Positions 36,496 to 59,850 are shown, counted from the stretch's first letter. The stretch: DNA of 64,000 nucleotides from an uncultured delta proteobacterium (GCA_963745035.1 CAVUVW010000014.1:352001-416000); one strand, 5' to 3'. The notes: generated from the sequence alone by a model not told the origin. Translations and numbers: made by a program.

Positions 36496-36646
36496 ATGAG
36501 GGCCCTCAGAAAATTACGGCCATTCTAACGCAGCCGGCAAACAACGCAATATCACTGTGCGCTAGCATGCGGCACACTGTTGGCGCGTTTGGATCAGTAG
36601 TCAAACGACAGCGAGCAGAGCACATTGACAGGCTAAGGAGTCGGTC

Positions 36647-40141: not shown

Positions 40142-40196
40142 TAGCTATTCCGCCGAATGTGTTGGCGAGGGCGGACAGGGTGATCAAGTAAATCTG

Positions 40197-42206: not shown

Positions 42207-42256
42207 CCGACAATCCAAACACAGCAATCCAAAATCGAAGATCTAAAATCGTCATG

Positions 42257-42295
42257 GTTCCGCCCAATGTTTTGGCTAGGACGAACTGAGTTATC
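42257..42295 (+). pseudogene. Degenerate orphan copy of the SBP 3' end
   Basis: Translates VPPNVLARTN*VI versus consensus [13 protein letters not shown]. Confidence 0.6.
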
Positions 42296-42542
42296 GATCA
42301 TCCGAGCAATCGCTGAGCGCCGCTGAAATATCCAAGCGGAACCGGCGAAATTTGATGTTTATAGTATGCAAGCGCAGCGCGTCCAGTTGACCCGACTAAA
42401 TTGACACACGACAACTTTGATGTATATCGTCTGCCCGGTAATAGGATCCTTTACGCCGCTTCGACCAGGGCAAACGAGCTGAATCCAGAAGAGTTTGGCT
42501 GTGTTGCCGTAGCAAGGCAGCCGAGACCCTGAAGGAGGACCG

Positions 42543-43520
42543 ATGAAACATCTGCTCGCAGCACTTGCCAGCCTCGCAATGGCCGCGTGCGGCGCCACCA
42601 ATCTGAGCAACACCAGTGGAGTCGTGAAAATCACCGGGCTCGGTAGCCATGACGGCGAGCTCTGTTCCTTCGATCGCGCGATCATTTTCGAGGACCCCGA
42701 CGGCACGCGAATCCTTTATGATGTCGGCCGCACGGTGCGCGGCGGCAACGATCCGCGGCTGGGCAAAATCGACGCGGTGCTCCTTACCCATGTGCATGGC
42801 GATCATATCGGTGACTCGCACCAGCCCTCCGCGAACGCCGGCAGTTGCCCAAAACCCGACGTGTCGGTCAATGCTGCGCCCAACTCCAACACCGTGAATG
42901 TCGTACTTGCCAAGCAGGCGCCTCTGATCGTAGGCGGCGAAATGCACTTTTTCTTCTCGGCGAAACTCAAGTCCCTCGGCGGGGACCCGGCCAGGCTGGT
43001 GCGGTTGGTGCGCTTCGGCGCGACCACTTCGATCGGAAAGGTCGTGGTCGCGGGCGTTCCCGCCTCTCACACCAACGGCCTCCCGCCGGCCTTCCTCCCC
43101 AAGGAGCAACAGCAGCTCTTAGCGGCGAGCGGCCTTACCGCCTACGTCGGACCGCCGGGCGGATTCGTTCTGCGCTTCAGCAACGGCCTCGTCGCTTACC
43201 TGTCCGGCGATACGGGCATTACTGCCGAGCAGGAGCTTGTGGTACGCCGGCACCATGGTGCCAACGTCGTGGTGATGAGCGTCGCTGGCGCTCCCAATAT
43301 GACCGGGCCGAGCGAGGCGGCATTCGTCGTAAACGATCTGGTTCGGCCGAACTCGGTCATCGTCACGCATGTCAACGAGGCAGCGACGGTGAACGGCAAA
43401 GTGGTTCCGACAAGCAAGACCGCCGCCTTTCAGAAGGCGGTCACAGTGCCGGTGCACGTGCCGCTCAGCGGCAAGACAATGGAATTCGACGGCAGCGGGC
43501 GCTGCTCCTCGAATTGCTGA
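42543..43520 (+). CDS. Metallo-beta-lactamase-fold hydrolase, probable lipoprotein
   Basis: Lipobox-like MAAC, THVHGDH, SH, YLSGDTG and VTH; RBS GGAGG. Confidence 0.85.
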   Translation: MKHLLAALASLAMAACGATNLSNTSGVVKITGLGSHDGELCSFDRAIIFEDPDGTRILYDVGRTVRGGNDPRLGKIDAVLLTHVHGDHIGDSHQPSANAGSCPKPDVSVNAAPNSNTVNVVLAKQAPLIVGGEMHFFFSAKLKSLGGDPARLVRLVRFGATTSIGKVVVAGVPASHTNGLPPAFLPKEQQQLLAASGLTAYVGPPGGFVLRFSNGLVAYLSGDTGITAEQELVVRRHHGANVVVMSVAGAPNMTGPSEAAFVVNDLVRPNSVIVTHVNEAATVNGKVVPTSKTAAFQKAVTVPVHVPLSGKTMEFDGSGRCSSNC

Positions 43521-43648
43521 AAACCCTTATGCCATCCACCAAATCCTCGCTGCGACATAATCCCGACAACACAGGCGCGTCGAAGATGAACGGCAGCGGG
43601 TTTATGGCGAAACATTCCGGACGCGTGGGCATGCCGAGATTTCTTTTT

Positions 43649-43945
43649 ATGAACCGCTTTCGTTCAATCCTTCTTGCCATCCTGCCAATCGTGGTGACTG
43701 CCTGCGCCATGGGCGAATTTCATGAGACGGCTCTATACACACAAGAAACCAATGATGGTGACGGCTACTGCCACAAGGTATTTCAACCCATAGGTCCCAC
43801 AGATCTGATAAGGCCGACGCAAAGCCGCGCAGGCGACTACATCAATTACTCCGGTCCGTGCGACGGCCTCACAGTCGAGGAACAGGCCAGAAAGCAAAGA
43901 CGTTTCGAGCAATTTCGCTTCGGCAGAGACTTCATGCCCGGGTGA
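43649..43945 (+). CDS. Small secreted or lipoprotein hypothetical, YCH...GPC family (A)
   Basis: Signal ending VTAC; GYCHKVF...GDYINYSGPCD. Paralogues at 52.3 kb and 55.2 kb. Confidence 0.7.
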   Translation: MNRFRSILLAILPIVVTACAMGEFHETALYTQETNDGDGYCHKVFQPIGPTDLIRPTQSRAGDYINYSGPCDGLTVEEQARKQRRFEQFRFGRDFMPG

Positions 43946-44060
43946 CGCATTCCTCTTCATCATAGCCGATTCCCGTTTTTCGCAAAGATCGAGATCCCAC
44001 CGCGGGAGGCAGAGACCACTAAATTGTTGGAAAGCACCTTCGCGTCCGCGGAGAAAAGCC

Positions 44061-45044
44061 ATGAAAAGAATTTTCATCGCCCTCGCTCTTCTCATCATGC
44101 TCCCTGGCTTTGCTGTCATCGCTCAGGCTCAGCAAACGGCAAGACTCCCGCGCGTCGCGCGCCTTTCACCGAGCACTGCGAACGCGGATGAGATCATGCT
44201 GGCGGGGTTTCGGCAGGGACTGAAAGAGCACGGCTGGATAGAGAACAAGAATATCGCGCTCGAATACCGATTCGCGGACGGCAAAACCGATCGGCTGAAC
44301 GACCTTGCGGCAGAACTTGTCCGGCTTAAAGTCGACGTTATCCTCTCCGGAGCGACCGTAGGCGCGCAGGCTGCCAAACGCGCGACCAGTACGATTCCGA
44401 TCGTGCTGGTAACAACCGGCGATCCCGTCGCTGCCGGTCTGGTCGCAAGTTTGGCGCGGCCCGGCGGCAATTTAACCGGAGTGACGGCGCTCGGCCAGGA
44501 ACTGAGCGGCAAGCGGCTCCAGCTTCTCAAAGAAGCTTTGCCCGGTATCAATCACGTAGCGGTATTGTCGAATCCGACCAATCCCGACAGCAAATTCTCC
44601 GTGAAAGAGGTTGAAGCCGCGGCCAATGACCTCGGGGTACGGATCAAAGTGCATGAAGCCGCCGATCCGAGCAGGTTTGAAGGGGCGTTTCGGGCCATGA
44701 CCGCCGAGCGTGCCGGCGCGGTCCTAGTGCTCACGGATTCCATGCTTTTCACGTACCGCAAACGGATCGTAGAACTCGCGGCACAAAGTCGTTTGCCCGC
44801 GATGTATCCCATCAGCGAATACGCGAACGTCGGCGGGCTGATGTTTTACGGCGCGAACTTTCCCGACATGTACCGCCAGGCCGCGGCCTTCGTGGACAAG
44901 ATTCTCAGAGGCACCAGGCCGGCCGATCTTCCGGTCGAGCAAGCGAAGAAATTCGAATTGATTATCAATCTCAATGCCGCCAAGCAGATCGGCCTGACCA
45001 TTCCGCCGAACGTGCTGGCGCGGGCGGACAAGGTGATCAAATGA
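44061..45044 (+). CDS. ABC_sub_bind-type SBP, copy 7
   Basis: Family motifs. Confidence 0.9.
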   Translation: MKRIFIALALLIMLPGFAVIAQAQQTARLPRVARLSPSTANADEIMLAGFRQGLKEHGWIENKNIALEYRFADGKTDRLNDLAAELVRLKVDVILSGATVGAQAAKRATSTIPIVLVTTGDPVAAGLVASLARPGGNLTGVTALGQELSGKRLQLLKEALPGINHVAVLSNPTNPDSKFSVKEVEAAANDLGVRIKVHEAADPSRFEGAFRAMTAERAGAVLVLTDSMLFTYRKRIVELAAQSRLPAMYPISEYANVGGLMFYGANFPDMYRQAAAFVDKILRGTRPADLPVEQAKKFELIINLNAAKQIGLTIPPNVLARADKVIK

Positions 45045-46069
45045 CAGTCGTCAGTAGTCAGTGGTCAGTAGTCAGCAAAAAAGCAGGTCTTTTCTGGTTA
45101 CTGATCACTGTCTTGCTGATTACTGTTTCTCCCGCCACGGCGCAGCAGCCAGCGAAAGTCTCCCGGTTAGGGTATCTATCAAATACCGATCCAGCTACTG
45201 ACTCCGCCCGTGCCGAAGGAATTCGGCTAGCTCTGCGCGAGCTTGGCTACATAGAAGGACAGAACATCGCCATCGAGTACCGATATGCGGAGGGGAGGCC
45301 CGAGCGGGATCCTGGGCTTGCGGCCGAGCTGGTGCGTCTCAAGGTTGATATCATCGTGGTAGCGTCAGGGGACGTGACGATCCGGGCGGCCAAGAATGCA
45401 ACCAAGACGATTCCCATCGTCATGACGGGCCTTGGGTCCGATCCTGTTAGGGCAGGTTTCGTTGAAAGCCTTGCTCGTCCCGGCGGCAATGTCACCGGCC
45501 TCACAGCCCTTAACAGGGAACTAGGCGGGAAGCGGCTGGAGCTGCTCAAAGAAGCGGTTCCCAAACTTTCCTTTGTCGCGGTTCTCTACGATCCGGCCAA
45601 TCCGCCCAGTTTACACGAGATGAAAGAGCTTCTCCCGGTCGACGCGCATGCACTAAAGTTGACTATTCAACCTTGGGAGATACGAGCGGTGGACGACTTC
45701 GAGAAGGTCTTTGCTGCGCTAAACAAGCAGCGCCCGGATGGACTCTACCCGTTCGGCGCGGGCGGGATAATGCGTCCTAACCGAAAACGAATCGTGGACT
45801 TTGCGTTAAAGAGCCGGCTACCGTCGATGTACTCCAGCAGAGAAGCTGTAGAGGCTGGTGGCCTCATGTCCTACGCCGCGGACGTCGCAGACAGTTACCG
45901 GCGCGTAGCTATCTACGTGGACAAAATCCTGAAGGGAGCCAAACCTGCCGATCTCCCTGTCGAACAGCCGACGAAATTTGAGCTGGTGATCAACTTGAAG
46001 ACGGCAAAGCAGATTGGCGTCACCATTTCCCAGAAAGTGCTGGCGCGAGCGGATAAAGTGATCCGATAG
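45041..46069 (+). CDS. ABC_sub_bind-type SBP, copy 8
   Basis: ATGA overlap with copy 7; N-terminus encoded by CAGTNGT heptamers. Confidence 0.9.
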   Translation: MTVVSSQWSVVSKKAGLFWLLITVLLITVSPATAQQPAKVSRLGYLSNTDPATDSARAEGIRLALRELGYIEGQNIAIEYRYAEGRPERDPGLAAELVRLKVDIIVVASGDVTIRAAKNATKTIPIVMTGLGSDPVRAGFVESLARPGGNVTGLTALNRELGGKRLELLKEAVPKLSFVAVLYDPANPPSLHEMKELLPVDAHALKLTIQPWEIRAVDDFEKVFAALNKQRPDGLYPFGAGGIMRPNRKRIVDFALKSRLPSMYSSREAVEAGGLMSYAADVADSYRRVAIYVDKILKGAKPADLPVEQPTKFELVINLKTAKQIGVTISQKVLARADKVIR

Positions 46070-46111
46070 ACACGGATCGGGGATGTGGCAGGGTTGATTT
46101 GGTGCGCCGGT

Positions 46112-46525
46112 TTAAGGGACGATCTGGAAAGCGCGATTTCGATTCATTCGGTAGCTGGAAAACCCGCGGCGATCAAGAGTGAAAACCCAGTCGGTTTCCA
46201 ATTCTTCTCCCAACACGACAAGGGTGGCATCGGCAAAGTCCATGGGCACATTGCGGTATCTTTCCATCAGTACCGCCACCCGTTGCAAGCTCTTCGCCGA
46301 AGACGGAACCAAGTGAAAAGCCCCTCGGAGAACAAATTCGAGACAAGCTTTCTGCGCGCGCCACTGGGGTCCGACCAAGTGAAGCGTTTCGGTCAAAACG
46401 GCTTCGGTGGTGACGACGGGCCCGGTCCATTTCTCCAACGCCGCCACGCAATCACCATGCAGCTTTTCGTCTCGGTCCACCAGCGCCACGAACGCGCCGG
46501 TATCCAACAAGAGATCATCGGCCAC
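46112..46525 (-). CDS. vapC: PIN-domain toxin (VapC)
   Basis: LLDTG, VLTE, MDFADA and FTLDRRGF. Confidence 0.9.
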   Translation of the reverse strand: MADDLLLDTGAFVALVDRDEKLHGDCVAALEKWTGPVVTTEAVLTETLHLVGPQWRAQKACLEFVLRGAFHLVPSSAKSLQRVAVLMERYRNVPMDFADATLVVLGEELETDWVFTLDRRGFSSYRMNRNRAFQIVP

Positions 46526-46763
46526 GGCGTAATCGACGGATCAGATAGTCGCGGTGGCGCTGCCCGAGATCGGACCGGCCGCTGGCGACGCTGCCGAGAA
46601 GATCACGCACCCGTTCGATGGGGCGCACTTCCGGCTGGGTGTCCAGATATTGCTCCAACGCCTCGCGCACCACTTCCGAGCGCTTGCGTTTCAAGCGCTT
46701 GGCCGACTGCTCCAGCTTTGTGGCCAAATCCGCGGGCAGCCGCATGCTCAATTGCCGTTCCAT
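46515..46763 (-). CDS. Ribbon-helix-helix antitoxin (VapB-like)
   Basis: LSMRLP...KRSEVVREALEQYL; overlaps the toxin start. Confidence 0.85.
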   Translation of the reverse strand: MERQLSMRLPADLATKLEQSAKRLKRKRSEVVREALEQYLDTQPEVRPIERVRDLLGSVASGRSDLGQRHRDYLIRRLRRGR

Positions 46764-46888
46764 TGGCTTTGCCTCCCGATGCAATACAATGTAATGCATA
46801 GCGGTACAAATGTCCAATCGTCCGTCAGCAACTCGATGGCGCGTCCCCACAATTGGCTATGCAGTCTTGGGGGCTTCGAGCTGTGGAC

Positions 46889-47052
46889 GCCGCAACCTAC
46901 ATGCACAAAATTCTTAAAGGCACCAAGCGCACCGACTCCCTGTCGAGTGGCCAACCAAGTTCGAGTTCGTAACTAATTTGAAAACCGTCAAACACACCGG
47001 TTTAATCATTCCGCCGCATGGCTTGGGGAGAGTCGATAACATCATACGGTGA
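46889..47052 (+). pseudogene. Degenerate orphan copy of the SBP 3' end
   Basis: AATYMHKILKGTK...PTKFEFVTNLKTVKHTGLIIPPHGLGRVDNIIR*. Confidence 0.8.
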
Positions 47053-47126
47053 GTCGGAAGCGTGATCGATTCGAGTAATCGATTCAGGCAAGATCGGCCA
47101 AATTGGTTAGGACAGGAGGATGTGCC

Positions 47127-48106
47127 ATGAAAACGAAATCCTCTCGCTGGTGGTGCGCCGTCATCCTGCTTGCGACATCCTTTTCAGGCTTCCGCGTCGA
47201 GGCGGCGCAGAAAGACCTGCAAAAACTCACCGTCGGCTACACGCCGATCTCCGGCGCGGCTTTGCCGTTCTTCATCGCCGTGGAAGAAAAACTATTTCAG
47301 AAGCACGGCTTCGAGGTTTCTCCAGTATTCATGGGCGGCTCGCCGCTGATCAATTCGGCGATACTCGCCGGCGAATTTCCCATCGGTTACACCGGCGGCG
47401 GCGCGATCATCTCGAGCCGGCTCGCGGGAAGCGATCTGATCGCGATCGCCTCTCCGCTGTCCGTGCTTACCATCGACGCCTGGGCAAAGCCGGAAATCAA
47501 ATCGGTCAGCGATCTGCGCGGCAAGAGAATCGGCGTCACCCGCTTCGGCGCCTCGACCCATTTCGCCGGCCTGTCGATGTTGGACTCGGCGGGCATCAAG
47601 CCGAACGAGGTTGTTTTCATCCAAAACGGCGGCGTCGGCGAATCGCTCGCCGCTTTGATCGGCGGCCGGGTGGACGCATCGATGATCGGATATCCGTTCG
47701 GCCTTAGAGCGAAAAGCGCCGGCTTTCCTCTCCTCTTCCGGCCGATGGATAGCGATTATGGGCTCTTCCCGACCGCCGTCATTGCGGCGCGAGAGTCCTG
47801 GTTAAAGGATCCGAAGAATCGCAAGGTCGCCGTCGATTTTTTGCGGGCGACTCAACGAGGGACTCCTGCTCACGCGAGAAAGTCCCAACACAGTCAAGCG
47901 AGCGCTGCGAAAATATACTCGCGTCGACGATGAGGCCTTGTTGCAAGGCAGCGTCGAATATTTCCGAGATGCTTTCCCGAAGACGCTTCAGAACCCCGGA
48001 GAAGGCGATGACCAATGCGCTCAAGTTCATCGACCATCCCAAAGCCAAGTCGTACGACGTGACGCAATCTTTCGACAACAGCTTGGTCAACGAAGCGGCC
48101 AAATAG
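47127..48106 (+). CDS. NitT/TauT-type SBP; frameshifts in the 3' part
   Basis: Close paralogue of 51236..52216 (LTVGYTPI...MGGSPLINSAILAGEF). Confidence 0.85.
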
Positions 48107-48132
48107 TCGCAAGCACCAGGCCAATAATAAGA

Positions 48133-49113
48133 ATGCGCATGTCTAGAAAAATTATTCCCTTTTTAGTTTACGCCTTGCTCTTTGCAATTTGCGGCTCTGC
48201 CAATGCGCAGCAAAAGAAAGTCCCCCGAATAGGATACCTGAGCGCTTCCTCGGCTTCCGAGGCGTCAGTAAGGACAAATGCGTTCCGTCAAGGGCTGGAA
48301 GAGCTTGGTTATGTCGAAGGGAAGAATCTTATCCTGGAGTTTCGCTATGCCGAGGGAAAATTCGATCGGCTTTCCCCCCTCGCTGCCGAACTCGTGCGGC
48401 TCAATGTAGACGCTATCGTCACCGCGGGCCCGTCGGTCACCCGCCCCGCGAAGGAAGCGACCGCTGCTATTCCTATCGTCATGACGAACGATAGCGATCC
48501 TATCGGCAGTGGCTTTATCGCCAGTCTGGCGCGGCCCGGAGGGAACGTTACCGGACTATCGAGCCTAGCCCGGGAGTTAAGCGGCAAACGGGTGGAGCTT
48601 CTAAAAGAGATCCTTCCCAATCTTTCTCGCCTCGCGATTTTGGGCACTTTCGATATTCCTGGAAACGCACAAGCTAGCCGAGAGACCGAACAGGCCGCGG
48701 CCGCTTTTAACCTGCAAACGCAATATTTTGACATACAAAGTGCGAAGGATGTCGACGCCGTATTCCGGGCCGCGAACAAATGGCGCGCCGATGCAGGCGT
48801 CGTGCTGAACGGCCCGCCTCATATTCAGCGACTGATTCCCGGCGCCGCAGTAAAGAGCCGGCTCCCCGCTATCTACTCCAATTTGGCAATCATGGACGAT
48901 GCGGGGCTGATGAGCTACGGCACGAATCTCAGCGACCTGGACCGGCGCGCCGCGATTTACGTCGATCGAATTCTCAAAGGGGCCAAGCCAGCCGATCTTC
49001 CCGTCGAGCAGCCGACCAAGTTCGATCTCGTGATCAATTTGAAAGCCGCCAAGCAGATCGGTCTGACGATTCCGCCGAATGTGTTGGCAAGAGCAGATCG
49101 AGTTATCCGATGA
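48133..49113 (+). CDS. ABC_sub_bind-type SBP, copy 9
   Basis: Family motifs; close to copy 10. Confidence 0.9.
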   Translation: MRMSRKIIPFLVYALLFAICGSANAQQKKVPRIGYLSASSASEASVRTNAFRQGLEELGYVEGKNLILEFRYAEGKFDRLSPLAAELVRLNVDAIVTAGPSVTRPAKEATAAIPIVMTNDSDPIGSGFIASLARPGGNVTGLSSLARELSGKRVELLKEILPNLSRLAILGTFDIPGNAQASRETEQAAAAFNLQTQYFDIQSAKDVDAVFRAANKWRADAGVVLNGPPHIQRLIPGAAVKSRLPAIYSNLAIMDDAGLMSYGTNLSDLDRRAAIYVDRILKGAKPADLPVEQPTKFDLVINLKAAKQIGLTIPPNVLARADRVIR

Positions 49114-49148
49114 TTCCAGAATCGAAAGTCCCAATCGTGTAGTGAGCG

Positions 49149-50138
49149 ATGGCGAAGCATCGAAAACGGGCCGAGCTTTTTGCAATCGTTGTCGCGCTCA
49201 CGGTGGGCTGGGCGACGGTTGAGGCGCAGCAGCCGAAGAAAATTCCGCGCATCGGATATCTAAGCGCTTCCTCGGCTGCCGAGGTTTCGCCCCGAACCGA
49301 GGCGTTCCGGCAGGGGTTGCGCGAGCTTGGCTATGTGGAAGGCAAAAGCCTCGTCATTGAGTTTCGCTATGCGGAGGGAAAATTCGACAATCTCGCCGAT
49401 CTCGCAGCCGAACTGGTGCGTCTCAACGTCGACGTAATCGTCACGGCCGGTCCCTCGGTAACCCGTCCCGCCAAGGAAGCTACCGCTACAATCCCCATTG
49501 TCATGACCAACGATACCGATCCGGTTGCGAGCGGATTCGTCGCCAGTCTTGCGCGTCCGGGCGCAAATATTACGGGACTGACCAATCTTGCCCAGGAGTT
49601 AAGTGGAAAACGGCTGGAGCTTCTCAAGGACATTCTTCCCAAGCTCTCGCGCGTCGCCGTACTCGGAACTTCGGATATCCCCAGAAATGCGCAGGCGTTG
49701 AGAGAGACGGAACTAGCCGCAGGCGCGCTCGGTGTCCAGATTCAGTACTTAGACATCCGCACTGCGAAGGATATCGAATCTGCATTTGGAGCTGCGCGCA
49801 AATGGCGCGCTGATGCAGTCTCCGTACTGAACGGCCCGCCCCACATTCAGCGACTGATTCCGGCGATCGCAGCGAAAAGTCGAATGCCTGCTATGTATTT
49901 CAACCCGGCGCTCATCGAACGCGACGAGGGATTAATAAGCTACGGTACGAATCTCAACGATTTGGACAGGCGCGCCGCCGCTTACGTCGACAAAATTCTC
50001 AAAGGCGCGAAGCCCGCCGATTTGCCCGTGGAGCAACCGACCAAATTTGAATTGGTCATCAATCTCAAAACCGCCAAGCAGATCGGCCTGACGATTCCAC
50101 CGAATGTTTTAGCCAGAGCCGACCGGGTGATTAAGTAG
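49149..50138 (+). CDS. ABC_sub_bind-type SBP, copy 10
   Basis: Shares [21 protein letters not shown] and LNGPPHIQRLIP with copy 9. Confidence 0.9.
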   Translation: MAKHRKRAELFAIVVALTVGWATVEAQQPKKIPRIGYLSASSAAEVSPRTEAFRQGLRELGYVEGKSLVIEFRYAEGKFDNLADLAAELVRLNVDVIVTAGPSVTRPAKEATATIPIVMTNDTDPVASGFVASLARPGANITGLTNLAQELSGKRLELLKDILPKLSRVAVLGTSDIPRNAQALRETELAAGALGVQIQYLDIRTAKDIESAFGAARKWRADAVSVLNGPPHIQRLIPAIAAKSRMPAMYFNPALIERDEGLISYGTNLNDLDRRAAAYVDKILKGAKPADLPVEQPTKFELVINLKTAKQIGLTIPPNVLARADRVIK

Positions 50139-50174
50139 GCAATAGGCACGAGGCAACAGGCAACAGTGAGGAAC

Positions 50175-51142
50175 ATGAACAAAAGAATTTACAGCTTTGC
50201 TCTTGCCGCTTTGCTCTTCGCGATAAACTCGCCGGCCGAGGCGCAGGTCAAAGGGAAGCCCAAGGTGGGCGTACTCACGCCTGCCGAGCGGCAGTGGGAG
50301 GGCGCGGCGTTCCGTGAGGCATTGCGCGGCCTTGGTTATATTGAAGGATCGAATATTCGATCGATGTTCGCTCGGCGGAAGGCAAGCTGGAGCGCATGCC
50401 GGAGTTGGCGGCGGCGCTCGTCAACTCCGATGTCGATGTGATCCTTTCCGTAAACACGCCGGGGGCGCGCGCAGCCATCGAAGCGACCAAGACGGTTCCC
50501 ATCGTCATGACTGCCATAGGCGACCCGGTCGGCTTGGGCTTGGTGACGAGTCTGGCCCGACCGGGAGGCAATGTTACGGGCCTTTCGAACATGAGCGGGG
50601 ATTTGGCCGGGAAGCGTCTTGAGCTGCTCAAAGAAGCCGTTCCGGCGGCAAGGCGCATCGCCGTGATGATGCATCCCGATGAGCCGATCGTGCCGATTCA
50701 AGTCAAAGACATCAACGCGACGGCCGCTCGTATGGGAGTGGAGTTGGAAATTATTCCGTTGCGCCACACCCACGAGCTCGAGCGGGCTTTTCAAAGAGCT
50801 CTTCAATGGCGCGCGCAAGGATTGTTGCGCTTGGCAGGACAAGCGACGGTGATCGGCCCGCCGACGGCTGAGCTGGCTTTGAAACACCGGATGCCCGCCA
50901 TGCTGCTGCTCAGACAGGACGTCGAGGCCGGCGCGCTTATGTCGTACTTTACCGATCATCCAGCGATGTTTCGGCGCGCCGCCGCGTACGTCGATAAGAT
51001 CTTGAAAGGAAGCAAAGTAGGCGAGCTTCCCGTCGAGCAGCCTTCACGATTCGAATTTTACGTAAATTTGAAGACGGCGAAGCAAATCGGCTTGACGATT
51101 CCACCGAACCTGCTAGCGCGAGCAGACAAAGTAATCAGATAG
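50175..51142 (+). CDS. ABC_sub_bind-type SBP, copy 11; frameshift near 50360
   Basis: ORFs 50166..50441 and 50396..51142. Confidence 0.85.
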
Positions 51143-51235
51143 GCAACAGGCACGAGGCAACAGGCAACAGAAAGAAAGCTGAAAAATCTAAAATCAAAAA
51201 TCGCAAATCGAAAATACTAAGAGGGGAGGATTACC

Positions 51236-52216
51236 ATGAAAGCGAGAGACCCGCGTTGGTGGTTTATAACCTTCCTGACTACGGCATCGTTGCTGAGCGT
51301 CTGCGCGCATGCGGCGCAAAGGGATTTGCAAAAGCTCACGGTCGGCTACACGCCGATCGGCGGCGCGGCGATCCCGCTATATATCGCCGTGGAAGAGAAA
51401 ATCTTTCAGAAGAATGGCTACGATATTTTCCCCGTGTTCATGGGCGGCTCGCCGCTGATCAATTCGGCGATCCTCGCGGGTGAATTCCCCATCGGCTACA
51501 CCGGAGGCGGCGCGATCATCGCCAGCCGGCTAAGCGGCAGCGACCTGATCGCCATCGCCTCTCCCCTGCCCGTGCTTACTATCGACGGCTGGTCCAAGCC
51601 CGAGATCAAATCCATCGGCGATGTCAAAGGCAAAAGAATCGGGGTTACGCGCTTCGGCGCATCGAGCTACTTCTCGGCCCTCTCCATGTTGGAGTCGGGC
51701 GGCGTGAAGCCGACCGAAGTAACGTTCATTCAGAATGGCGGCGTCGGCGAATCCTACGCCGCCCTCGTCGGCGGTCGCGTCGATGTGTGCATGATCGGCT
51801 ATCCTTTCGGGCTCAGCGCCAAGAACGCCGGATTCAATCTGCTGTTCCGGCCTTTGCAGAGTGAATACGGGCTCTTTCCAACCGCGGTGATTGGAGCGCG
51901 CGAGTCCTGGCTCAAGGAACCGAAGAATCGCAAGGTCGCCGTCGAGTTTCTCCGCGCCCTCCACGCAGGCCAACAGTTGGCCAGGGAAAACGCCGCGGTG
52001 ACCAAGCGCGCGCTGCGTAAATTCACCCGCACCGAAGATGACGCATTACTGCAAGGCACTTTCGAGTTCTACAAGGACGCCTTCCCGAGCTCGCTTCGGG
52101 TCAACGAAAAAGCGATGGCGAACGCGCTCAAGTTCGTCGAACATCCGAAAGCCAAGCAGTTCGACGTGCGCCAGTCCTTCGACAACAGCTTCGTCGATGA
52201 GGCAATGAGGCAGTAG
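51236..52216 (+). CDS. NitT/TauT-type SBP
   Basis: Signal peptide, KGKRIGVTRFG, ALVGGRVD and FDNSFVDE. Confidence 0.88.
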   Translation: MKARDPRWWFITFLTTASLLSVCAHAAQRDLQKLTVGYTPIGGAAIPLYIAVEEKIFQKNGYDIFPVFMGGSPLINSAILAGEFPIGYTGGGAIIASRLSGSDLIAIASPLPVLTIDGWSKPEIKSIGDVKGKRIGVTRFGASSYFSALSMLESGGVKPTEVTFIQNGGVGESYAALVGGRVDVCMIGYPFGLSAKNAGFNLLFRPLQSEYGLFPTAVIGARESWLKEPKNRKVAVEFLRALHAGQQLARENAAVTKRALRKFTRTEDDALLQGTFEFYKDAFPSSLRVNEKAMANALKFVEHPKAKQFDVRQSFDNSFVDEAMRQ

Positions 52217-52301
52217 GTGAGAGGCATGAGGCACGAGCAACAGGCATGAGGCGTAGATCAACCGTCAGCGTGGAACGATTTTGAATTGCAGGAGAAAATT
52301 A

Positions 52302-52652
52302 ATGAGACGAAAGCGTTTTGCTGAATTTAGGAATCTCCAGTCCGGCAATCTGAGCGCTCTTATCGCTATGCTGTTTGTGTTTGAAACTCTGCTGCCGATC
52401 CCGCTACTCTGGGCGGCGGAAGGCGTTATCTACAAAGTTTCCGATTCGACCGGCACATACTGTCATCTCAAGTTTCCGGCGATCACCAGGAACACGCTTT
52501 TTTCAGATCGGCCGGTTCTGAAGGACCCGAGCGAAGGCGATATTCGAGATTTCTATGGACGCTGCGATTACGATCCGCTGGGTGCAGAGGAAATTCGCCG
52601 CCAACGGGTCGAGCACCAGCGTCAGCGCCGCCGGATTCTCAGCAGAGATTGA
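52302..52652 (+). CDS. Small secreted hypothetical, YCH...GxC family (B)
   Basis: Hydrophobic N-terminus; TYCHLKFPAI...GDIRDFYGRCD...EEIRRQR. Start uncertain. Confidence 0.65.
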   Translation: MRRKRFAEFRNLQSGNLSALIAMLFVFETLLPIPLLWAAEGVIYKVSDSTGTYCHLKFPAITRNTLFSDRPVLKDPSEGDIRDFYGRCDYDPLGAEEIRRQRVEHQRQRRRILSRD

Positions 52653-52762
52653 CGGATCTCCTGCTTGAACATTCCAAGGGTAGCTATGATCAGCAAAGCC
52701 TACGCACTGGCTTGAGGCGTGAGCCGTGAGGCGTCAGGCGTGAGAATACTGAGAATACAAGG

Positions 52763-53749
52763 ATGAATCAAAACATTTTTCGTTTCATGCTTTGCGGAAT
52801 GCTCTTGGCGTTTTGCCTCCCCGCCGAGGCGCAGCAGACAGGAAAAATCTTCCGCATCGGTTACCTGGATACCAGCACTGCTTCCGGTAGCGCAGTCCAC
52901 ATTGATGCCTTCCGCCAGGAGATGCGCAAGCTTGGATGGATCGAGGGAAAGAATATCACTATCGAGTATCGGTTTGCCGAGCAAAAAAATGAGCGCTTGC
53001 CCGAGCTTGCGGCGGACTTGGTTCGTCTTAAGGTTGATCTGATTGTGGTCGTGGGGACGCAAGCGTCTTTGGCGGCAAAGCGAGCAACTGCGACCATCCC
53101 CATCGTGATGGCGAGCGTTGCGGACCCTGTGGCGGCGGGCCTGGTTGCCAGTCTGGCGCGGCCGGGAGGCAATGTGACCGGGACTATCGGGTTTATCGCC
53201 TGAGCTAAATACCAAAAGGTTGGAGATACTTAAGGACGCGGTCCCCAAGCTCGTCCGTGTTGGACTTTTTGGCTGTCGGGACGCGGCATAGGACAAGAAC
53301 TCCAAATGAAAGAGCTTAGGCCTGCGGCTCTGGCACTGAAGCTAAATTGGAGGAGATCGAGACTCAACCCGACGCCAAAGGTTTAGAGAGCGCCTTTCAA
53401 ACCGCCAAGCAGAAGCAAGTCAACGCGATTATGACGACCACCGGTACTTCCTTTTTCGCTGAAAGAAAGCGGATCGTCGAGCTTGCCGCCAAATACCGGC
53501 TGCCTGCTATTTACACACAGAAGGAGTTTGTCGTTGCGGGCGGTCTCATTCCTATGGGGTGGATCTCTTGAGCTCTGCCGACGCGCGGCGGGTTACGTGG
53601 ACAAAATCTTGAAAGGCGCCAAACCGGCTGATTTGCCGGTGCAGCAGGCAACCAAGTTTGAATTCATCATCAACCTGAACGCGGCAAAGCAAATCGGTCT
53701 GACAATTCCAGCGCGCGTGCTCGAGCGGGCGAATCAGGTGATTAAATAG
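52763..53749 (+). CDS. ABC_sub_bind-type SBP, copy 12; several frameshifts (error or pseudogene)
   Basis: Fragments 52763..53203, 53347..53571 and 53483..53749 are collinear. Confidence 0.8.
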
Positions 53750-53978
53750 GCAATAGGCATGAGACAACAGTAAGAAAGTTGAATCGGGCAATAGGTAAAA
53801 CATTTGTAGTGAGCTGTGTCGAAACCATTAAAAATCTCAAATCGGAAGATTCTGCCCAACGTACAGGCGTAATCAGATAGAAGTTGGAGTTATGGAATAT
53901 TTGGGCAGCCGGGAAAAAGCATTACTTCGGTACTCCAATACTCCAGTACTCCAACGAAGCTGAGTTAGGAGAGCCAAC

Positions 53979-54962
53979 ATGCAGAAGACGTTTTTGCCCT
54001 GGGTCCTGCTAACCGCATTTCTGACAATCGTTTCTCCCGCGTCAGCGCAGCAGACGGAGAAGACTTGGAAGATCGGCGTGCTGGTTTCCGGCACGGCCTC
54101 GATCAACGCGCCGCGCGATGAAGCGCTGCGCCGCGGGCTCCGCGATTTCGGTTACGAAGAGGGCAAGAATATTGTGTTCGCCTACAGGTATGCCGAAGGC
54201 AAAACCGATCGCTTGCCAAAACTCGCCAAAGAACTGATCGCGGAAAAGCCCGATGTGGTGGTCGTCGGCGGCACCGCCGTCGCCGTCGCGGCGAAAAACG
54301 CCACCAGCACGATCCCGATCGTCGTCGCGGGAGCGGGCGACCTCGTCGAAGCCGGACTCATCAAAAGCTTCATGTATCCCGGCGGCAATGTGACCGGCGT
54401 GGCGCGGCTATCGGCCGATTTCTTCGGCGACCGGCTCAAGCTTATTAAGGAAGTAGTGCCAAAGGCAGCCCAAGTAACGGCGCTTTCAAATCCGAACAAT
54501 TCCGGCCATGGCCGCAGCCTCAAAGACGCCGAGTTGGGCGCGCGTTCGTCGGCCATGACCTTCGGAAACGTCAGCGCGCGATCAGCCGATGAGCTGGATA
54601 AAGCGATCGCCGCTGCCGCGCAAGGCGGCGCCAGCGCGCTCTTTCTGATGACCGATGCCATGTTCAACTCCAACCTGGCGCGGATCGCGCAACTTGCGCT
54701 CAAGCACCGACTACCGTCGGTTTACGATCGCACCGAGTATGTCGAGGCCGGCGGGCTGATGAGCAATGGCGTGAATCTCTCCGATCTCTCGCGCCGCGCC
54801 GCCGAGTACGTTCACCAAATTCTCAAAGGCACCAAGCCGGGCGACCTCACTCTCGTCCAGCCGACCAAATTCGATCTGGCGGTGAATCTCAAGACCGCTC
54901 AGCAGATCGGATTAACTATTCCGCCGAATGTTTTGGCGAGAGCGGACAAAGTAATTAAGTAA
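53979..54962 (+). CDS. ABC_sub_bind-type SBP, copy 13
   Basis: Family motifs; RBS AGGAG. Confidence 0.9.
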   Translation: MQKTFLPWVLLTAFLTIVSPASAQQTEKTWKIGVLVSGTASINAPRDEALRRGLRDFGYEEGKNIVFAYRYAEGKTDRLPKLAKELIAEKPDVVVVGGTAVAVAAKNATSTIPIVVAGAGDLVEAGLIKSFMYPGGNVTGVARLSADFFGDRLKLIKEVVPKAAQVTALSNPNNSGHGRSLKDAELGARSSAMTFGNVSARSADELDKAIAAAAQGGASALFLMTDAMFNSNLARIAQLALKHRLPSVYDRTEYVEAGGLMSNGVNLSDLSRRAAEYVHQILKGTKPGDLTLVQPTKFDLAVNLKTAQQIGLTIPPNVLARADKVIK

Positions 54963-55190
54963 GGAGTAAGTGGTGAGAAGTGAGGCGAAACAGAAATTTT
55001 GGATTTTGGATTGTCTATTTTGGATCAACGGTGCACGAAATATTTCGGACTCAATCCTCGATGCTCGCTCCGACAGTCGGGAAAAAACAGCAGGGAATGA
55101 TCCGATGAACCAGGCGACAGCCGCAAGCCAATGGGCTAGAGTCAGCCGATCTAGGATCACGCAAATCTGATTACAGATGAGGACATTTGA

Positions 55191-55485
55191 ATGAATGGAT
55201 TTCGCCTATAAATATCCTGCTTTCTATCTTGCTAGTCTTTTTCGTTGGCTTTGCTACCGGCGATTTCGATCAAGCAACCCGTACGAGCAAGAGATAGCTA
55301 AGGGCTACTGCCACAGGATATTGCAACCCGTGGGTCCCACCGAGATCATAAGACCGACGCAAAGCCGGTCCGGCGATTACATCAGCTACTACGGCCCCTG
55401 CGAGGGACCCTCCGCTGAGGAGCAGGCCAGAAAACAAAGACGTTTTGAGCGCTACCGCTTCGGCAGAGACTTCATGCCCGGATGA
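55191..55485 (+). CDS. Small YCH...GPC family protein (C); 5' part frameshifted or decayed
   Basis: GYCHRILQPVGPTEIIRPTQSRSGDYISYYGPCE...RFGRDFMPG is highly similar to 43649..43945. Confidence 0.65.
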
Positions 55486-55542
55486 GCACGGATTGAATGG
55501 AGTGAGCGCAACATTCCTTTGCACATCGCTTCGCTTGCCTGC

Positions 55543-55665
55543 ATGAAATATTTGCCCGGGCAACCGACGAAGTTTGAGTTCGTGGTCAATCTCAAAACAG
55601 CGAAGCAAATCGGCCTGACGATTCCGCCGAACGTGCTGGCGCGGGCGGACCGGGTAATTCGGTGA
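55543..55665 (+). pseudogene. Orphan intact copy of the SBP 3' end (possible mini-ORF)
   Basis: [40 protein letters not shown]. Confidence 0.8.
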
Positions 55666-55696
55666 AGTGAAGGGTGAGGAGTAAGGCGAATCCAAA

Positions 55697-56687
55697 ATGA
55701 AAATCCAAAATCCACAATGGCTGGGGGCTTTTACATTCGCCTTCGCGCTAGTCGGGGCCGCGGTTCAGGCTCAGCAGCCGACTAAAATCCCCCGGATCGG
55801 GTATCTCATCACTTCGTCGCCTGCGGCGATCGCGCCGCGCATGGAAGCATTTCAGCAAGGGCTGCGTGATCTCGGCTATGTCGAGGGGAAAAATATTGTC
55901 ATCGAGCACCGCTATGCAAACGGACGATCCGATCAACTCCGTGTGCTCGCCGCCGAACTGGTGCAACTGAACGTAGACATCATCGTTTCCAGCGGTCCGA
56001 CGGCGACGCGCCCCGCTAAGGAAGCAACCTCCAAAATCCCTATTGTCATGACCTTCGATGATGATCCAATCGGCAGCGGCTTCGTCGCCAGTCTCGCCCG
56101 GCCGGGTGGGAACGTCACCGGTTTGTCGACGCTTTCACCGGAGATCAGCGGAAAGCAACTGGAGCTGTTGAAAGAGATCGTGCCCAAGATCACTCGAGTA
56201 GCTGTGCTGGGAACTTTGACGAGGGAAGGCACCGCGCAGAATCTAAAAGAGATGGAACTCGCCGCTGGAGCATTCGGACTGAAGCTTAAATATTTGGACA
56301 CGCAAAATGTCAAGGACATCGAGGGTAGCTTCGAAAACGCGAGTAAAGGGCGCGCCGAGGCCGTCCTCATATTGCAGAGCCCGGTGTTCAATTCGCAACG
56401 ACCACAGATCGCGGAGCTCGCGCTAAAGAGGCGGCTTCCCGCGATCTATCCGCGACGAGAATTCGTCGAAGACGGCGGTCTGATGAGCTACGGCGTGAGC
56501 ATTCTCGATTTGGACCGCCGCGCCGCGATTTACGTGGACAAGATCCTCAAGGGTGCCAAGCCCGCCGATCTCCCAGTCGAGCAGCCGAACCAAGTTTGAG
56601 CTGATGATCAATCTAAAAGCCGCCAAGCAAATCGGCCTGATCATTCCTCCCAACGTCCTGGCGCGTGCGGACAAAGTAATACGGTAA
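55697..56687 (+). CDS. ABC_sub_bind-type SBP, copy 14; frameshift near 56590
   Basis: Family motifs; C-terminal tail in the next frame. Confidence 0.88.
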
Positions 56688-56758
56688 GGAGTAAGTGGTG
56701 AGGAGTGAGGCGAAAAACAAATTTTGGATTTTCGATTGAAACCCAAGAGAACAAACCG

Positions 56759-57859
56759 ATGAACGCAATGCCTTCGAAGTCTCTTTCCGACAATCCAAAA
56801 CCTGTCCCTTCGATAAACTCAGGGCAGGCTCTGAGCCATGCCGAAGGATCGGCAATCGAAAATCGAAAATTGGTGGGGATTGTTGCTCTCGCTGTCGCAT
56901 TCATAACGTGTGGGGCCTTGGCCACGGCGCAGCAGCCGAAGAAAGTCTCCCGAATAGGGTATCTTTCGAATACCGATGCAGCTACTGACTCCGCCCGCGC
57001 CGAGGGAATTCGGCTGGCTCTGCGCGAGCTTGGCTACATAGAAGGACAGAACATCGCCATCGAGTACCGATATGCGGAGGGGAAGGTCGATCGGGCTCCT
57101 GAGCATGCGGCGGAGCTTGTGCGTCTGAAGGTTGATATCATCGTGGTAGCGTCAGGGGACCCGTGGATCCGGGCGGCCAAGAATGCAACCAAGACGATTC
57201 CCATCGTCATGATGGGCCATAGGGTCCGATCCTGTTAGGGCAGGCTTCGTTGAAAGCCTTGCTCGTCCCGGCGGCAATGTCACCGGCCTCACAGCCCTTA
57301 CCAGAGAACTAGGCGGGAAGCGGCTGGAGCTGCTCAAAGAAGCGGTACCCAAACTTGCCCGTGTCGCGGTTCTCTACGATCCGGCCAATCCGCCCAGTGT
57401 ACGCGAGGTGAAAGAGGTTCTCCCAGTCGCGGCGCGTGCGCTGGGGTTGACTATTCAACCTTGGGAGGTACGAGCTGCGGGCGGTTTCGAGAGGGTATTT
57501 GCTGCGATAAACAAGGAGCGCCCGGATGGACTCTACTCGTTCGCCGCGGGCCCGGTAATGCGTCCTAACCAAAAACGAATCGTGGGCTTTGCGTTAAAGA
57601 GCCGGTTACCGTCGGTGTACAGCAGCAGAGAAGCTGTAGAGGCCGGCGGGCTCATGTCCTACGGCCGGGACCTCGCGGACAGCTACCGGCGCGTAGCCAC
57701 CTACGTGGACAAGATTCTGAAAGGCGCCAAGCCCGGCCGACCTGCCGGTGGAGCAGCCGACCAAGTTCGAGTTGGTGATCAATCTGAAAACAGCGAAGCA
57801 GATCGGCGCTGACGATTCCGCCGAACGTGCTGGCGAGGGCGGATAGGGTGATTCGCTAA
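56759..57859 (+). CDS. ABC_sub_bind-type SBP, copy 15; frameshifts, start uncertain
   Basis: Mature region is very similar to copy 8 ([19 protein letters not shown]). Confidence 0.82.
56800..56848. repeat. REP-like palindromic insert in the leader of SBP copy 15
   Basis: ccttcg...ctcag ggcaggct ctgag...cgaagg hairpin sits inside an AATCGAA/AATCCAA heptamer tract. Confidence 0.55.
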
Positions 57860-57892
57860 GCAGTGAAGGAGATGAAGAGATGATCGCAAGCA

Positions 57893-58345
57893 TTACGGAC
57901 CAGAAGGCGAACTGAGCTTGGCCTCGAGGGTGGCGACTTCTTTTACGACGAGCCAGTCCTCCGGATTAAGCACGCTTACCTGAGAACTATTAAAGTCCTT
58001 TGTGTTTCGAGTAATGAGATGATTCACGGAGACAGATTCAGCACTGGCGAGTTGAATGTTATCCTCGAAGTCGGTCCCGGCAGAGGTGAGCGCGCGGTCG
58101 AGAATGATTGGAGTCAGTGGAACCAGCTGAAGCCCTTTCAAGATCTCCCGCGCATCGGCGCGAGCAGTATTCTCATCGACGACGCGTCGCCTAAAGAAGT
58201 AGATCAAGGGGAGAGTAAGCGCCGAAGACCAACTCTCGATTTCTTGCGATCGGCGGGCCAAGTTAAGCACCCGGAGACTTTGGCTCCAACCGTTTCGTTT
58301 CGTCATCACGTCAATGAAGACATTAACGTCGATGAAGATTTTCAA
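57893..58345 (-). CDS. PIN-domain toxin (VapC-like)
   Basis: IFIDVNVFID, DFEDNIQ and LITRNTKDF. Confidence 0.88.
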   Translation of the reverse strand: MKIFIDVNVFIDVMTKRNGWSQSLRVLNLARRSQEIESWSSALTLPLIYFFRRRVVDENTARADAREILKGLQLVPLTPIILDRALTSAGTDFEDNIQLASAESVSVNHLITRNTKDFNSSQVSVLNPEDWLVVKEVATLEAKLSSPSGP

Positions 58346-58632
58346 TCCGTCAATCTCCGGGCGATGGACTCGCTAATAAGGGCTTTATCGTCTTGGACGG
58401 GATTTTCCGGATGGATTCCAACAAGCTTAAGAAGTTCGGGATCAATGGGCACATTGGGGCATTGCTTAGATACGGCGTCTCGGTCTGCTTTGGTTTGTCG
58501 CTGCTTTGCCTCATCCCGCTCTTTTTCTTCAAGCAGTGAGCGCAGTTGTCGTTCAAGGGCTCGCAGGGTGGCGACATCCTCGTCTCTCACAAGTTTAAGC
58601 AACTGGTCCAGTTCTTCCGCTGTCTTCCCCAT
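58342..58632 (-). CDS. Putative antitoxin of unrecognised family
   Basis: Small charged helical ORF overlapping the PIN gene start by 4 nt. Confidence 0.65.
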   Translation of the reverse strand: MGKTAEELDQLLKLVRDEDVATLRALERQLRSLLEEKERDEAKQRQTKADRDAVSKQCPNVPIDPELLKLVGIHPENPVQDDKALISESIARRLTD

Positions 58633-58696
58633 GATAAGTGGAATTATAGACAGTGGCGCGAGCAATGGTCAAGCCAATCGGCGACGATCACCGCAG

Positions 58697-58777
58697 ATCG
58701 CCCTGAAAACAGTGAAGCAGATCGAACTTGCAATCCCGCCGAATGTGCTGGCTCGGGCGGATAAGGTGATCAAGTGA
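58697..58777 (+). pseudogene. Orphan copy of the SBP 3' end
   Basis: [26 protein letters not shown]. Confidence 0.8.
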
Positions 58778-58820
58778 CACCAACGCAACAGGCATTAGAC
58801 ACTAGACAATAGAAAAAGAC

Positions 58821-59799: not shown

Positions 59800-59850
59800 A
59801 CAGTGATCTGTGGTCAGTCGCCAGCGCTCAGCAAAAACATCGAACAAATC

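Follow-up and report, generated by a model that had tools for sequence, protein, structure and literature searches.

Why should the last codons of a gene stand alone, behind unrelated small genes, within a tandem array of full-length copies of the same gene? This question is raised by a 64,000-nucleotide (nt) stretch of DNA (the window) from an uncultured delta proteobacterium (GCA_963745035.1, CAVUVW010000014.1:352001-416000), in which an array of genes for substrate-binding proteins (SBPs) is interrupted by toxin-antitoxin (TA) pairs and other small genes, several of them followed by a solitary SBP 3' end (here called a stub). A reading of the sequence alone had seen integron-like cassette logic in this layout, with the crossover site inside the conserved coding tail. 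Our analysis leads to a plainer account, which we consider probable, if not strongly so: the stubs would be neutral relics, the modules would persist because they are addictive, and ordinary homologous recombination at the tail, with no dedicated recombinase, would have reshuffled the genes around them.

The window corresponds to positions 352001-416000 of contig C14 in assembly G000 (7.43 Mb, 28 contigs, 58% G+C). Relatives of the same order are labelled Candidatus Binatia, and the public sequencing runs that hold window DNA are soil and rhizosphere metagenomes. The tandem array occupies ~34-62 kb of the window and comprises ~18-22 paralogous SBP genes of 325-345 codons, all on the plus strand; the member tested is an ABC-transporter substrate-binding protein of family PF04392 (154.8 bits against a cut-off of 25.9, covering positions 15-293 of the 293-position profile). 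G000 carries ~85 SBP copies in at least eight tandem arrays, most of them held by arrays on C2, C14 (two), C15 and C17 and by small clusters on C11 and C13; by our sum of the profile-search spans, the arrays cover 98.7 kb, or 1.33% of the genome. A DNA profile of 996 positions was made from the 39 SBP copies that translate cleanly, and G000 was searched for pieces with nhmmer. Nineteen of 58 near-full-length candidates fail to translate in a single frame, and frameshifts in some copies may reflect strain differences or assembly errors. Contigs from other runs show single-base insertions or deletions at 53343, 57220, 57735 and 57807-57809, exactly at the SBP frameshifts of this assembly, and are one base shorter at each of the last three sites, so that some of the array's apparent pseudogenes may be intact in other strains or may be assembly errors. 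Counts across genomes are descriptive throughout, since kin genomes are not independent. The parts of the array that carry stubs are as follows.

35056-36063, plus strand: SBP gene, PF04392-type (full-length tblastn and nhmmer matches)
36145-36495, minus strand: retropepsin-like open reading frame (ORF), reversed cargo (PF13650, 46.2 bits; orthologue in genome G015 at L009:5195-5545)
~36560-36650, plus strand: decayed SBP tail stub (aligns with the intact G015 stub, L009:5630-5756, with a 25-nt deletion)
41274-42206, plus strand: SBP gene (tblastn and nhmmer)
42252-42295, plus strand: short tail stub of ~45 nt (nhmmer profile 947-990, E 0.33; weak, visible by eye)
45041-46069, plus strand: SBP gene upstream of TA pair 1 (TA1) (PF04392, 154.8 bits)
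46112-46525, minus strand: TA1 toxin, PIN domain (PF01850, 43.2 bits)
46515-46850, minus strand: TA1 antitoxin, ribbon-helix-helix, likely start 46763 (PF01402, 29.5 bits; relatives align from residue ~30)
46888-47052, plus strand: decayed, frameshifted SBP tail stub (nhmmer profile 831-996, E 5.9e-26)
53979-54962, plus strand: SBP gene upstream of a small ORF (tblastn and nhmmer)
55195-55485, plus strand: small ORF of 96 codons ('YCH' protein C), forward cargo (family-less)
55560-55665, plus strand: intact-looking SBP tail stub (nhmmer profile 891-996, E 3.8e-35)
56888-57858, plus strand: SBP gene upstream of TA pair 2 (TA2), with several frameshifts in this assembly (tblastn, four frames)
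57893-58345, minus strand: TA2 toxin, PIN_3 domain (PF13470, 49 bits)
58342-58665, minus strand: TA2 partner, presumed antitoxin, likely start 58632 (4-nt overlap with the toxin start)
58643-58672, minus strand: TA2 promoter-like site TTGACC-18-TATAAT (11 of 12 consensus matches; conserved in 6 genomes)
58703-58777, plus strand: SBP tail stub (nhmmer profile 922-996, E 1.9e-16)

The profile search bore out the stand-alone tails at all four positions given by the sequence-only reading, to within 17 nt, and tblastn confirmed the three longer ones (46888, 55560 and 58703). ORF and Pfam analysis likewise reproduced the layout described for three units, each consisting of an SBP gene, a cargo (TA1, the small ORF or TA2) and a stub. 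Two tails in the window had been missed, one displaced by an insertion sequence (IS; 40145-40191) and the decayed one at ~36560-36650, which is recognisable only because the orthologous G015 locus keeps its stub intact; the start codon of the next SBP gene (36647) lies inside its last codons. The short stub at 42252-42295 stands 46 nt past the stop codon of SBP gene 41274, behind a spacer of heptamer repeats. DNA contigs from three independent studies run from the SBP tail through TA1 and its stub into the next gene (45968-47316), from the SBP tail through the small ORF to the stub (54752-55626) and, with 0 differences, from the TA2 antitoxin through the stub into the next SBP gene (58212-58902); therefore, the layout of the three units is no assembly artefact. 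Contig joints at 90% likeness proved to be mostly cross-matches between paralogues, with sides of 20-39 nt, and no conclusion was drawn from them.

Orphan 5' ends had not been seen in the window, and the profile search found none there either. Across G000, 19 pieces consist of the 3' end only (1 of them IS-displaced and 3 with E > 0.1; 2 pieces at contig edges were excluded), as against 3 pieces with the 5' end only, none of which lies within an array, plus 1 internal piece and 1 3'-truncated copy. Detection power was simulated with 39 SBP genes of relatives that lie outside the profile, at 0, 10 and 20% decay. Pieces of 150 nt from the 5' end were detected in 38, 31 and 12 of the 39 cases, respectively, and pieces of 100 nt from the 3' end in 39, 36 and 22. 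A detection bias is thus present but far too small to account for a ratio of 19:3 and, therefore, the excess of 3' over 5' remnants is real.

What, then, are the stubs? Every one extends to the SBP stop codon (profile end 988-996), and their left edges fall at profile positions 639-962 (639-940 for the longer stubs). No stub in G000 is closest to the tail directly upstream of it; best identities range from 0.5 to 0.94 and are to scattered paralogues. The TA1 stub at 46888-47052 reaches 0.69 at best with any other tail, and that at 55560-55665 reaches 0.87, again with scattered paralogues and not with the upstream SBP gene. A target-site duplication in G000 was rejected on these grounds, since the stubs are no copies of the neighbouring tail. 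The stubs are also old. The one behind the retropepsin-like gene predates the split of G000 and G015, being intact in the latter and decayed in the former, and the TA2 stub has its edge at profile 915-930 in four of the seven genomes with TA2 (G000, G085, G106 and G090; three genera), while it has been lost in G105 and half lost in G007 (2 of 6 orthologous stubs). Among the four keepers, pairwise identity of the TA2 stub is 0.55-0.71, compared with 0.54-0.79 at the four-fold sites of the adjoining toxin gene; the stubs, therefore, drift as neutral DNA. We lean towards regarding them as old relics, the final 45-165 nt of SBP genes that have lost their first 85-95%, with no working sites in them. 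Short stubs of ~45 nt (seven or more) begin within 6 nt of one another, at profile 946-952 (ATTCCGCC), directly behind a heptamer spacer. Break-points at ATTCCGCC were noted at window positions 42252 and 40145, at C2:11420, C2:15778, C17:189817 and L009:8545, and in L032 and L086; a converted patch of SBP gene 56888 also starts there, the G007 stub breaks off there, and the motif GCTGGCG lies just downstream.

TA1 and TA2 are both encoded on the minus strand, with promoter-like sites between the antitoxin start and the stub. The toxin and antitoxin genes of TA1 overlap by 11 nt, and the pair has a promoter-like site at 46816-46788 and a conserved operator-like palindrome. Relatives of the TA1 toxin are 72-86% identical in 6 related genomes, while TA2 toxin orthologues are 66-78% identical in 6 genomes, with the partner gene co-conserved; this partner had no Pfam match. 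By their profile matches, the predicted toxins of TA1 and TA2 fall in known type II TA toxin families (PF01850 and PF13470, respectively). The TA2 toxin gene has in-frame stops in three of the six other genomes, G105, G106 and G090 (L083, L084 and L085), where the partner and promoter are conserved. The small 'YCH' ORF at 55195-55485 matched nothing in Pfam or the Atlas. It belongs to a family of small ORFs with a conserved C-terminal part of ~60 residues, found in the window at 43718-43942, 52281-52652 and 55195-55485 and elsewhere at C2:200607, C14:138060 and C25:25242; those in the window are oriented with the array and follow a metallo-beta-lactamase-fold gene, an NMT1-type SBP gene or a PF04392 SBP gene. 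TA2 and two of the 'YCH' ORFs are touched by RNA-library contigs, which is no proof of transcription.

The arrangement recurs elsewhere in G000. Units closed by a stub are found at C2:18508-19243 (a PemK/MazF pair), C17:192070-192824 (a ParE toxin and an 'Unstab_antitox' antitoxin) and C2:5374-6212 (a retropepsin-like two-gene module); the C17 array also holds a second, reversed MazF gene (C17:194273), which lacks a stub. Five of 20 toxin-family matches lie in arrays (PIN 2 of 11, PemK/MazF 2 of 3, ParE 1 of 6), which make up 1.33% of G000, an enrichment with P ~5e-6 by our binomial arithmetic. All five array toxins are antiparallel to their array, four of the five are followed by a stub, and it is usually the promoter side of a module that faces the stub. 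The modules of the SBP arrays are shown to be small and self-contained, mostly type II TA operons with promoter-like sites of their own, directed against the array. Retropepsin-like (PF13650) genes also recur reversed in SBP arrays (36145-36495, C2:5374-6008, L009:5195-5545 and L011:11539-12052), in two cases with an upstream partner of 76 codons, and they look like another kind of two-gene selfish module.

Orthologous arrays lie between the same flanking genes as in G000 in five congeners, with the array locus of G018 split over two contigs and the upstream flank of G014 not found; they measure ~11-13 kb in G004, G015 and G003, compared with 28 kb in G000. Four stubs were found in G015, where they follow a retropepsin-like gene, a PIN/MazE-type pair and two other inserts. 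A stub likewise follows the Phd antitoxin of G014, and G004 has the same layout with a PIN toxin and an AbrB-type antitoxin. There are counter-examples. G018 has a RelE/Phd-like pair that is co-oriented with the array and lacks a stub, and G003 has both a reversed PIN/Phd pair with no detectable stub and a 5' SBP fragment adjoining a retropepsin-like insert. The cargo of the two other G015 inserts and the RelE/Phd-like pair of G018 were judged by eye from the sequence and not by a Pfam call.

Close relatives provide direct evidence of recombination at the tail. G105 and G106 share 94% identity in the TA2 toxin gene and 87% in the spacer after the stop codon of the upstream SBP gene, while the bodies of these SBP genes, which are different paralogues, are 59% identical; the corresponding values for G085 and G007 are 94, 82 and 54%. 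In both pairs the switch in identity falls in roughly the final 15 nt of the coding tail. The sequence-only reading had called for a comparison among related genomes to see whether breakpoints map to the tail, and in these two pairs they do. A shorter exchange is seen between G085 and G000, whose upstream SBP genes are orthologous (body 82%, positions -75 to -46 90%) with a replaced patch at -45 to -16 (57%). Here G000 has the common version of the tail, and G085, G106 and G090 have a rare IPQWTL version. In the latter three genomes the tails on both sides of TA2 share this version and are 0.73-0.83 identical (0.81 and 0.83 in G085 and G106, respectively). Downstream of SBP gene 56888, the G000 and G015 tails were too alike to resolve the junction.

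Why recombination should fall at the tail may be explained by its being the sole stretch with long exact identity between paralogues. Of the 741 pairs of intact copies, 102 share exact runs of at least 20 nt within the last 120 nt, as against 26 within the remaining ~870 nt, and for 414 the longest exact run lies in the tail. Concerted evolution of the tails was considered and rejected, as no pair exceeds 0.89 and, by a rough estimate, the counts of long exact runs are within the expectation from per-site identity. A predicted excess of synonymous-site conservation in the tail turned out to be mild: the last 30 codons score 1.38-1.59, the bulk of the gene scores 1.0-1.3 and a few blocks elsewhere reach 1.33-1.42, and nucleotide conservation of the tail is mostly explained by its ~80% amino-acid identity. 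Altogether, these sequence comparisons support homologous reshuffling at the tail. The earlier proposal that the array recombines at its conserved tail, therefore, stands with respect to shuffling, for which there are junctions in the tails of relatives, and is without support with respect to the capture of cargo.

We suggest that these observations may be combined as follows. A redundant SBP array would be a tolerated landing place, in which addictive TA operons, once landed, would tend to persist. The SBP gene adjoining the insert would have lost its 5' part, leaving the stub, and host homologous recombination, acting without a dedicated recombinase, would swap the sequences on either side of the tail. 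Several points weigh against this account. A plain landing-place model fails to predict the loss of 5' parts with retention of 3' parts, and random deletion does not predict stub starts clustered at profile 946-952. The shared IPQWTL tails that flank TA2 fit a duplication of the tail at insertion as well as they fit a truncated sister gene. The orientation bias across TA families (~7 reversed versus 1 co-oriented) is unexplained, and no recent exchange is visible among the 741 pairs of intact tails in G000, the highest identity being 0.89. Moreover, dead-looking copies may owe their frameshifts to strain differences or to the assembly, and the phylogeny of TA1 neighbours given below comes from a quick search only.

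The alternative that survives best supposes that units of tail, cargo and tail are moved between arrays, within and between genomes, by a RecA-type double crossover, with the stub as a working right-hand arm and no integrase involved; we regard this as a serious but minority possibility. Part of its evidence comes from TA1. Beginning at the toxin stop codon and ending ~50 nt before the start of the antitoxin gene, the TA1 block measures ~710 nt; its limits are identical in seven related genomes in which the flanks differ, and TA1 occupies different positions in congeners. A TA1-type toxin is present at 61 public loci, 22 of which have PF04392 genes no more than 2.5 kb away and always antiparallel to it; the labels of these 22 are Binatia, 'delta proteobacterium', Thermodesulfobacteriota, Burkholderiales/Betaproteobacteria and Gammaproteobacteria. 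Many TA1 loci have a tail on either side of the cargo. One junction, in which a stub of ~85 nt abuts the -35 box, is common to eight public loci; other TA1 loci have a stub of ~165-200 nt, of ~20 nt, or none. On a tree of the SBP neighbours (quick maximum-likelihood; one row with stops replaced by X, and two upstream rows from the same genome), 7 changes are required for the 8 upstream neighbours and 7 for the 9 downstream ones, compared with shuffled means of 7.2 and 7.8, respectively. The neighbours thus form no clades and, therefore, TA1 came to lie beside different, unrelated paralogues, which fits either an exchange at the tails or a repeated turnover of the array around a fixed insert. 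The tail-end junctions in two close pairs of genomes, the rare tail type shared on both sides of TA2 in three genomes and the surplus of long exact runs in the tail (102 versus 26 pairs) would also be expected from such an exchange. However, no two intact tails in G000 are more than 89% identical, the stubs decay neutrally and have been lost in some lineages, and their length varies between and within cargo families (20 to ~200 nt for TA1). TA modules without stubs exist at C17:194273, in G003 and in L032, each of the two TA pairs is single-copy in G000, and the count of 22 in 61 is no test, kin loci not being independent. The bolder form of the idea, in which the SBP tail is a universal homology arm, integrase-free TA cassettes have spread to the arrays of distant lineages, and the addictive cargo protects arrays from collapse, is likewise a minority possibility; the relic account, with recombination at the tail reshuffling the genes around persisting modules, is the one that we prefer.

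It is also conceivable, although unlikely, that stubs are kept for a function in cis, either serving the SBP gene that follows as its ribosome-binding or leader region, or shielding the TA promoter as a spacer. Consistent with this, every stub reaches the stop codon, ~13 of the 19 are by our count followed by a same-strand gene within ~100 nt, the next start codon overlaps the stub end at C2:19240 and at window position 36647, the last 30 codons show the mild synonymous excess, and in several units the stub edge lies 15-30 nt upstream of the -35 box of the TA operon. On the other hand, the stubs diverge like four-fold sites and 2 of 6 orthologous ones have been lost. A consensus scan found no promoter-like sites in the tails (6 sites in 20 kb, compared with 8.1 in shuffled sequence), and Rfam gave no matches in 33-64 kb. 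All 14 tails examined fold like their shuffles (z -1.8 to +1.0), with no stable structure predicted; a structured RNA or DNA site in the tail was accordingly rejected.

Still less probable is that the stubs are plain pseudogene debris, produced by random insertions and deletions in a decaying array, with the tail uninvolved and the pattern a product of detectability. The failure of 19 of 58 near-full-length copies to translate cleanly, the neutral decay of the stubs and their varying left edges would all suit this explanation, but detection bias is too small for the observed ratio, 19 3' to 3 5' remnants, tail-end junctions were found in both of the close pairs examined, and neither the enrichment of TA genes nor their orientation bias is predicted by it.

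As for integron-like cassette logic, which the sequence-only reading had inferred, it found no support: neither attC-like sites nor a stable hairpin nor a local recombinase turned up, and the integrase found elsewhere in the genome has no cassettes. That reading had itself seen no recombinase gene and, in agreement, none of 20 tyrosine-recombinase (PF00589) matches lies in the window. G000 does encode an integron integrase (TIGR02249, 445 bits against a cut-off of 265; C6:42038-43168), its sole match above the cut-off, with a lexA-like gene adjoining, and no repeat family or cassette array was found within 19 kb on either side. A crude pattern scan for the boxes, a weaker test than an attC covariance model, detected no attC site in the window or in C6:25-60 kb. 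The four cargo borders have no consistent inverted repeats, and no insert contains an integrase gene, each consisting of a TA pair or one small ORF only. That a tyrosine recombinase acting in trans inserts cassettes at a tail site and duplicates it, as in integrons or islands, is, therefore, hardly credible in the light of these results, of tails that fold no better than shuffles, of longer-stub left edges spread over profile 639-940 and of stubs that do not copy the adjoining tail, despite the genuine integrase, the shared left edge of the short stubs (946-952), the rare tail type on both sides of TA2 in three genomes, and the reversed TA cassettes with promoters of their own that are typical of chromosomal integrons (PMC13108822). 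Two side observations concern C6: the contig could be a binning contaminant, and 9-nt tandem repeats (GTTCAA-type) form inverted arrays ~300-450 nt apart at C6:36111-36944 (L094:12112-12945), ~5 kb from the integrase.

Several known systems bear comparison with the SBP arrays. Genomic islands in the 3' end of a tRNA, tmRNA or protein gene consist of the complete gene, the inserted DNA and a direct repeat of the gene's 3' end. The layout here is the same, and in G085 and G106 the tails that flank TA2 are 0.81-0.83 identical and share the rare type; unlike such islands, the inserts of the SBP arrays have no integrase, the repeat varies in length, and the G000 stub is not closest to the adjoining tail. 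Tandem paralogue arrays are also known to undergo birth-and-death evolution by unequal crossing-over and gene conversion. The swapping and loss of SBP units at their most conserved segment, the short converted patch and the many broken copies resemble this process, whereas the selfish TA operons, the marked excess of 3' stubs and the lack of homogenised tails in G000 do not. In the pilS loci of Neisseria, silent 5'-truncated cassettes serve antigenic variation. SBP stubs are likewise promoterless, 5'-truncated family copies near full copies, but they keep only the invariant tail, store no diversity and decay neutrally. In homology-facilitated illegitimate recombination, a short conserved anchor lets adjoining foreign DNA enter during natural transformation. 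This would fit the presence of TA1 in SBP arrays of distant lineages, except that the cargo here is flanked by two tails, which points to a pair of homologous crossovers. Finally, as in the TA cassettes of sedentary chromosomal integrons (e.g., the Vibrio cholerae superintegron), TA operons are interspersed in an array of similar-sized units with a repeated boundary. In contrast to these integrons, the repeated boundary is formed here by the array genes' own coding 3' end, without attC boxes or a special fold, no integrase adjoins the SBP array, and the units are tightly packed paralogues of one family instead of diverse promoterless cassettes. The TA operons of chromosomal integrons carry their own promoters and are thought to prevent array loss (PMC13108822).

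Our literature search found no paper that joins TA operons, gene remnants and SBP arrays, and, judged by titles and the beginnings of abstracts, none of the papers that name PF04392 or ABC_sub_bind deals with arrays. If tail-to-tail exchange were general, a large paralogue family would at the same time be a platform for storing and transmitting selfish or accessory genes with no dedicated recombinase, i.e., a functional integron analogue made of ordinary coding sequence, and it would be a concrete case of TA operons accumulating in, and maybe stabilising, repeat-rich regions outside integrons. Under the more sober interpretation too, it is easy to mistake a stub for a small gene or for part of a long antisense ORF. 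One example is the plus-strand ORF at 58019-58777 (252 codons), which runs through TA2 into the stub and is most likely spurious. SBP arrays are also likely trouble spots for the assembly and binning of these soil genomes.

The other features of the array region are as follows.

37705-38668, plus strand: SBP gene, tail cut by the IS (tblastn and sequence inspection)
38669-40141, minus strand: IS5-like element of 1473 bp, DUF772 transposase in two frames (PF05598, 55.5 bits)
40145-40191, plus strand: displaced true tail of SBP gene 37705 (nhmmer profile 946-996, E 8.2e-11)
47103-48100, plus strand: NMT1-family SBP gene, apparently broken (tblastn with the NMT1 gene 51236-52216, three pieces)
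55697-56687, plus strand: SBP gene with a frameshift near its 3' end (tblastn, two frames)
58876-59799, plus strand: SBP gene with several frameshifts (tblastn)
59803-61874, plus strand: the last two SBP genes of the array, 59803-60834 and 60831-61874 (tblastn and nhmmer)

The element at 38669-40141, which we take to belong to the IS5 family, has terminal inverted repeats, with the ends CTAGTTCTCACTG.../...CAGTGAGAAC, and is flanked by a 3-bp target duplication (TAG at 38666-38668 and 40142-40144). A second copy at C26:94092-95550 is 97.7% identical, has a TAA duplication, and its transposase is likewise split over two frames. Targeting of the tail by this element was rejected, as there are just two copies, with 3-bp targets of TAG and TAA, and its position in an SBP tail is likely due to chance.

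The spacers that follow SBP stop codons are filled with short tandem heptamer repeats (41180-41210, 45045-45075, 50137-50166, 51141-51220, 52197-52252, 52709-52744, 54996-55025, 55689-55718 and 58796-58821), whose units include CAGTAGT, AGGCAAC, AAAATCG, ATGAGGC, GGCGTGA and AATCCAA. At times, the repeats extend into the first codons of the next gene, and similar heptamer repeats occur beside SBP genes of distant public genomes. SBPs of the NMT1/THI5-like type are hugely expanded in G000 as well, the gene at 51236-52216 having hundreds of tblastn matches on nearly all contigs.

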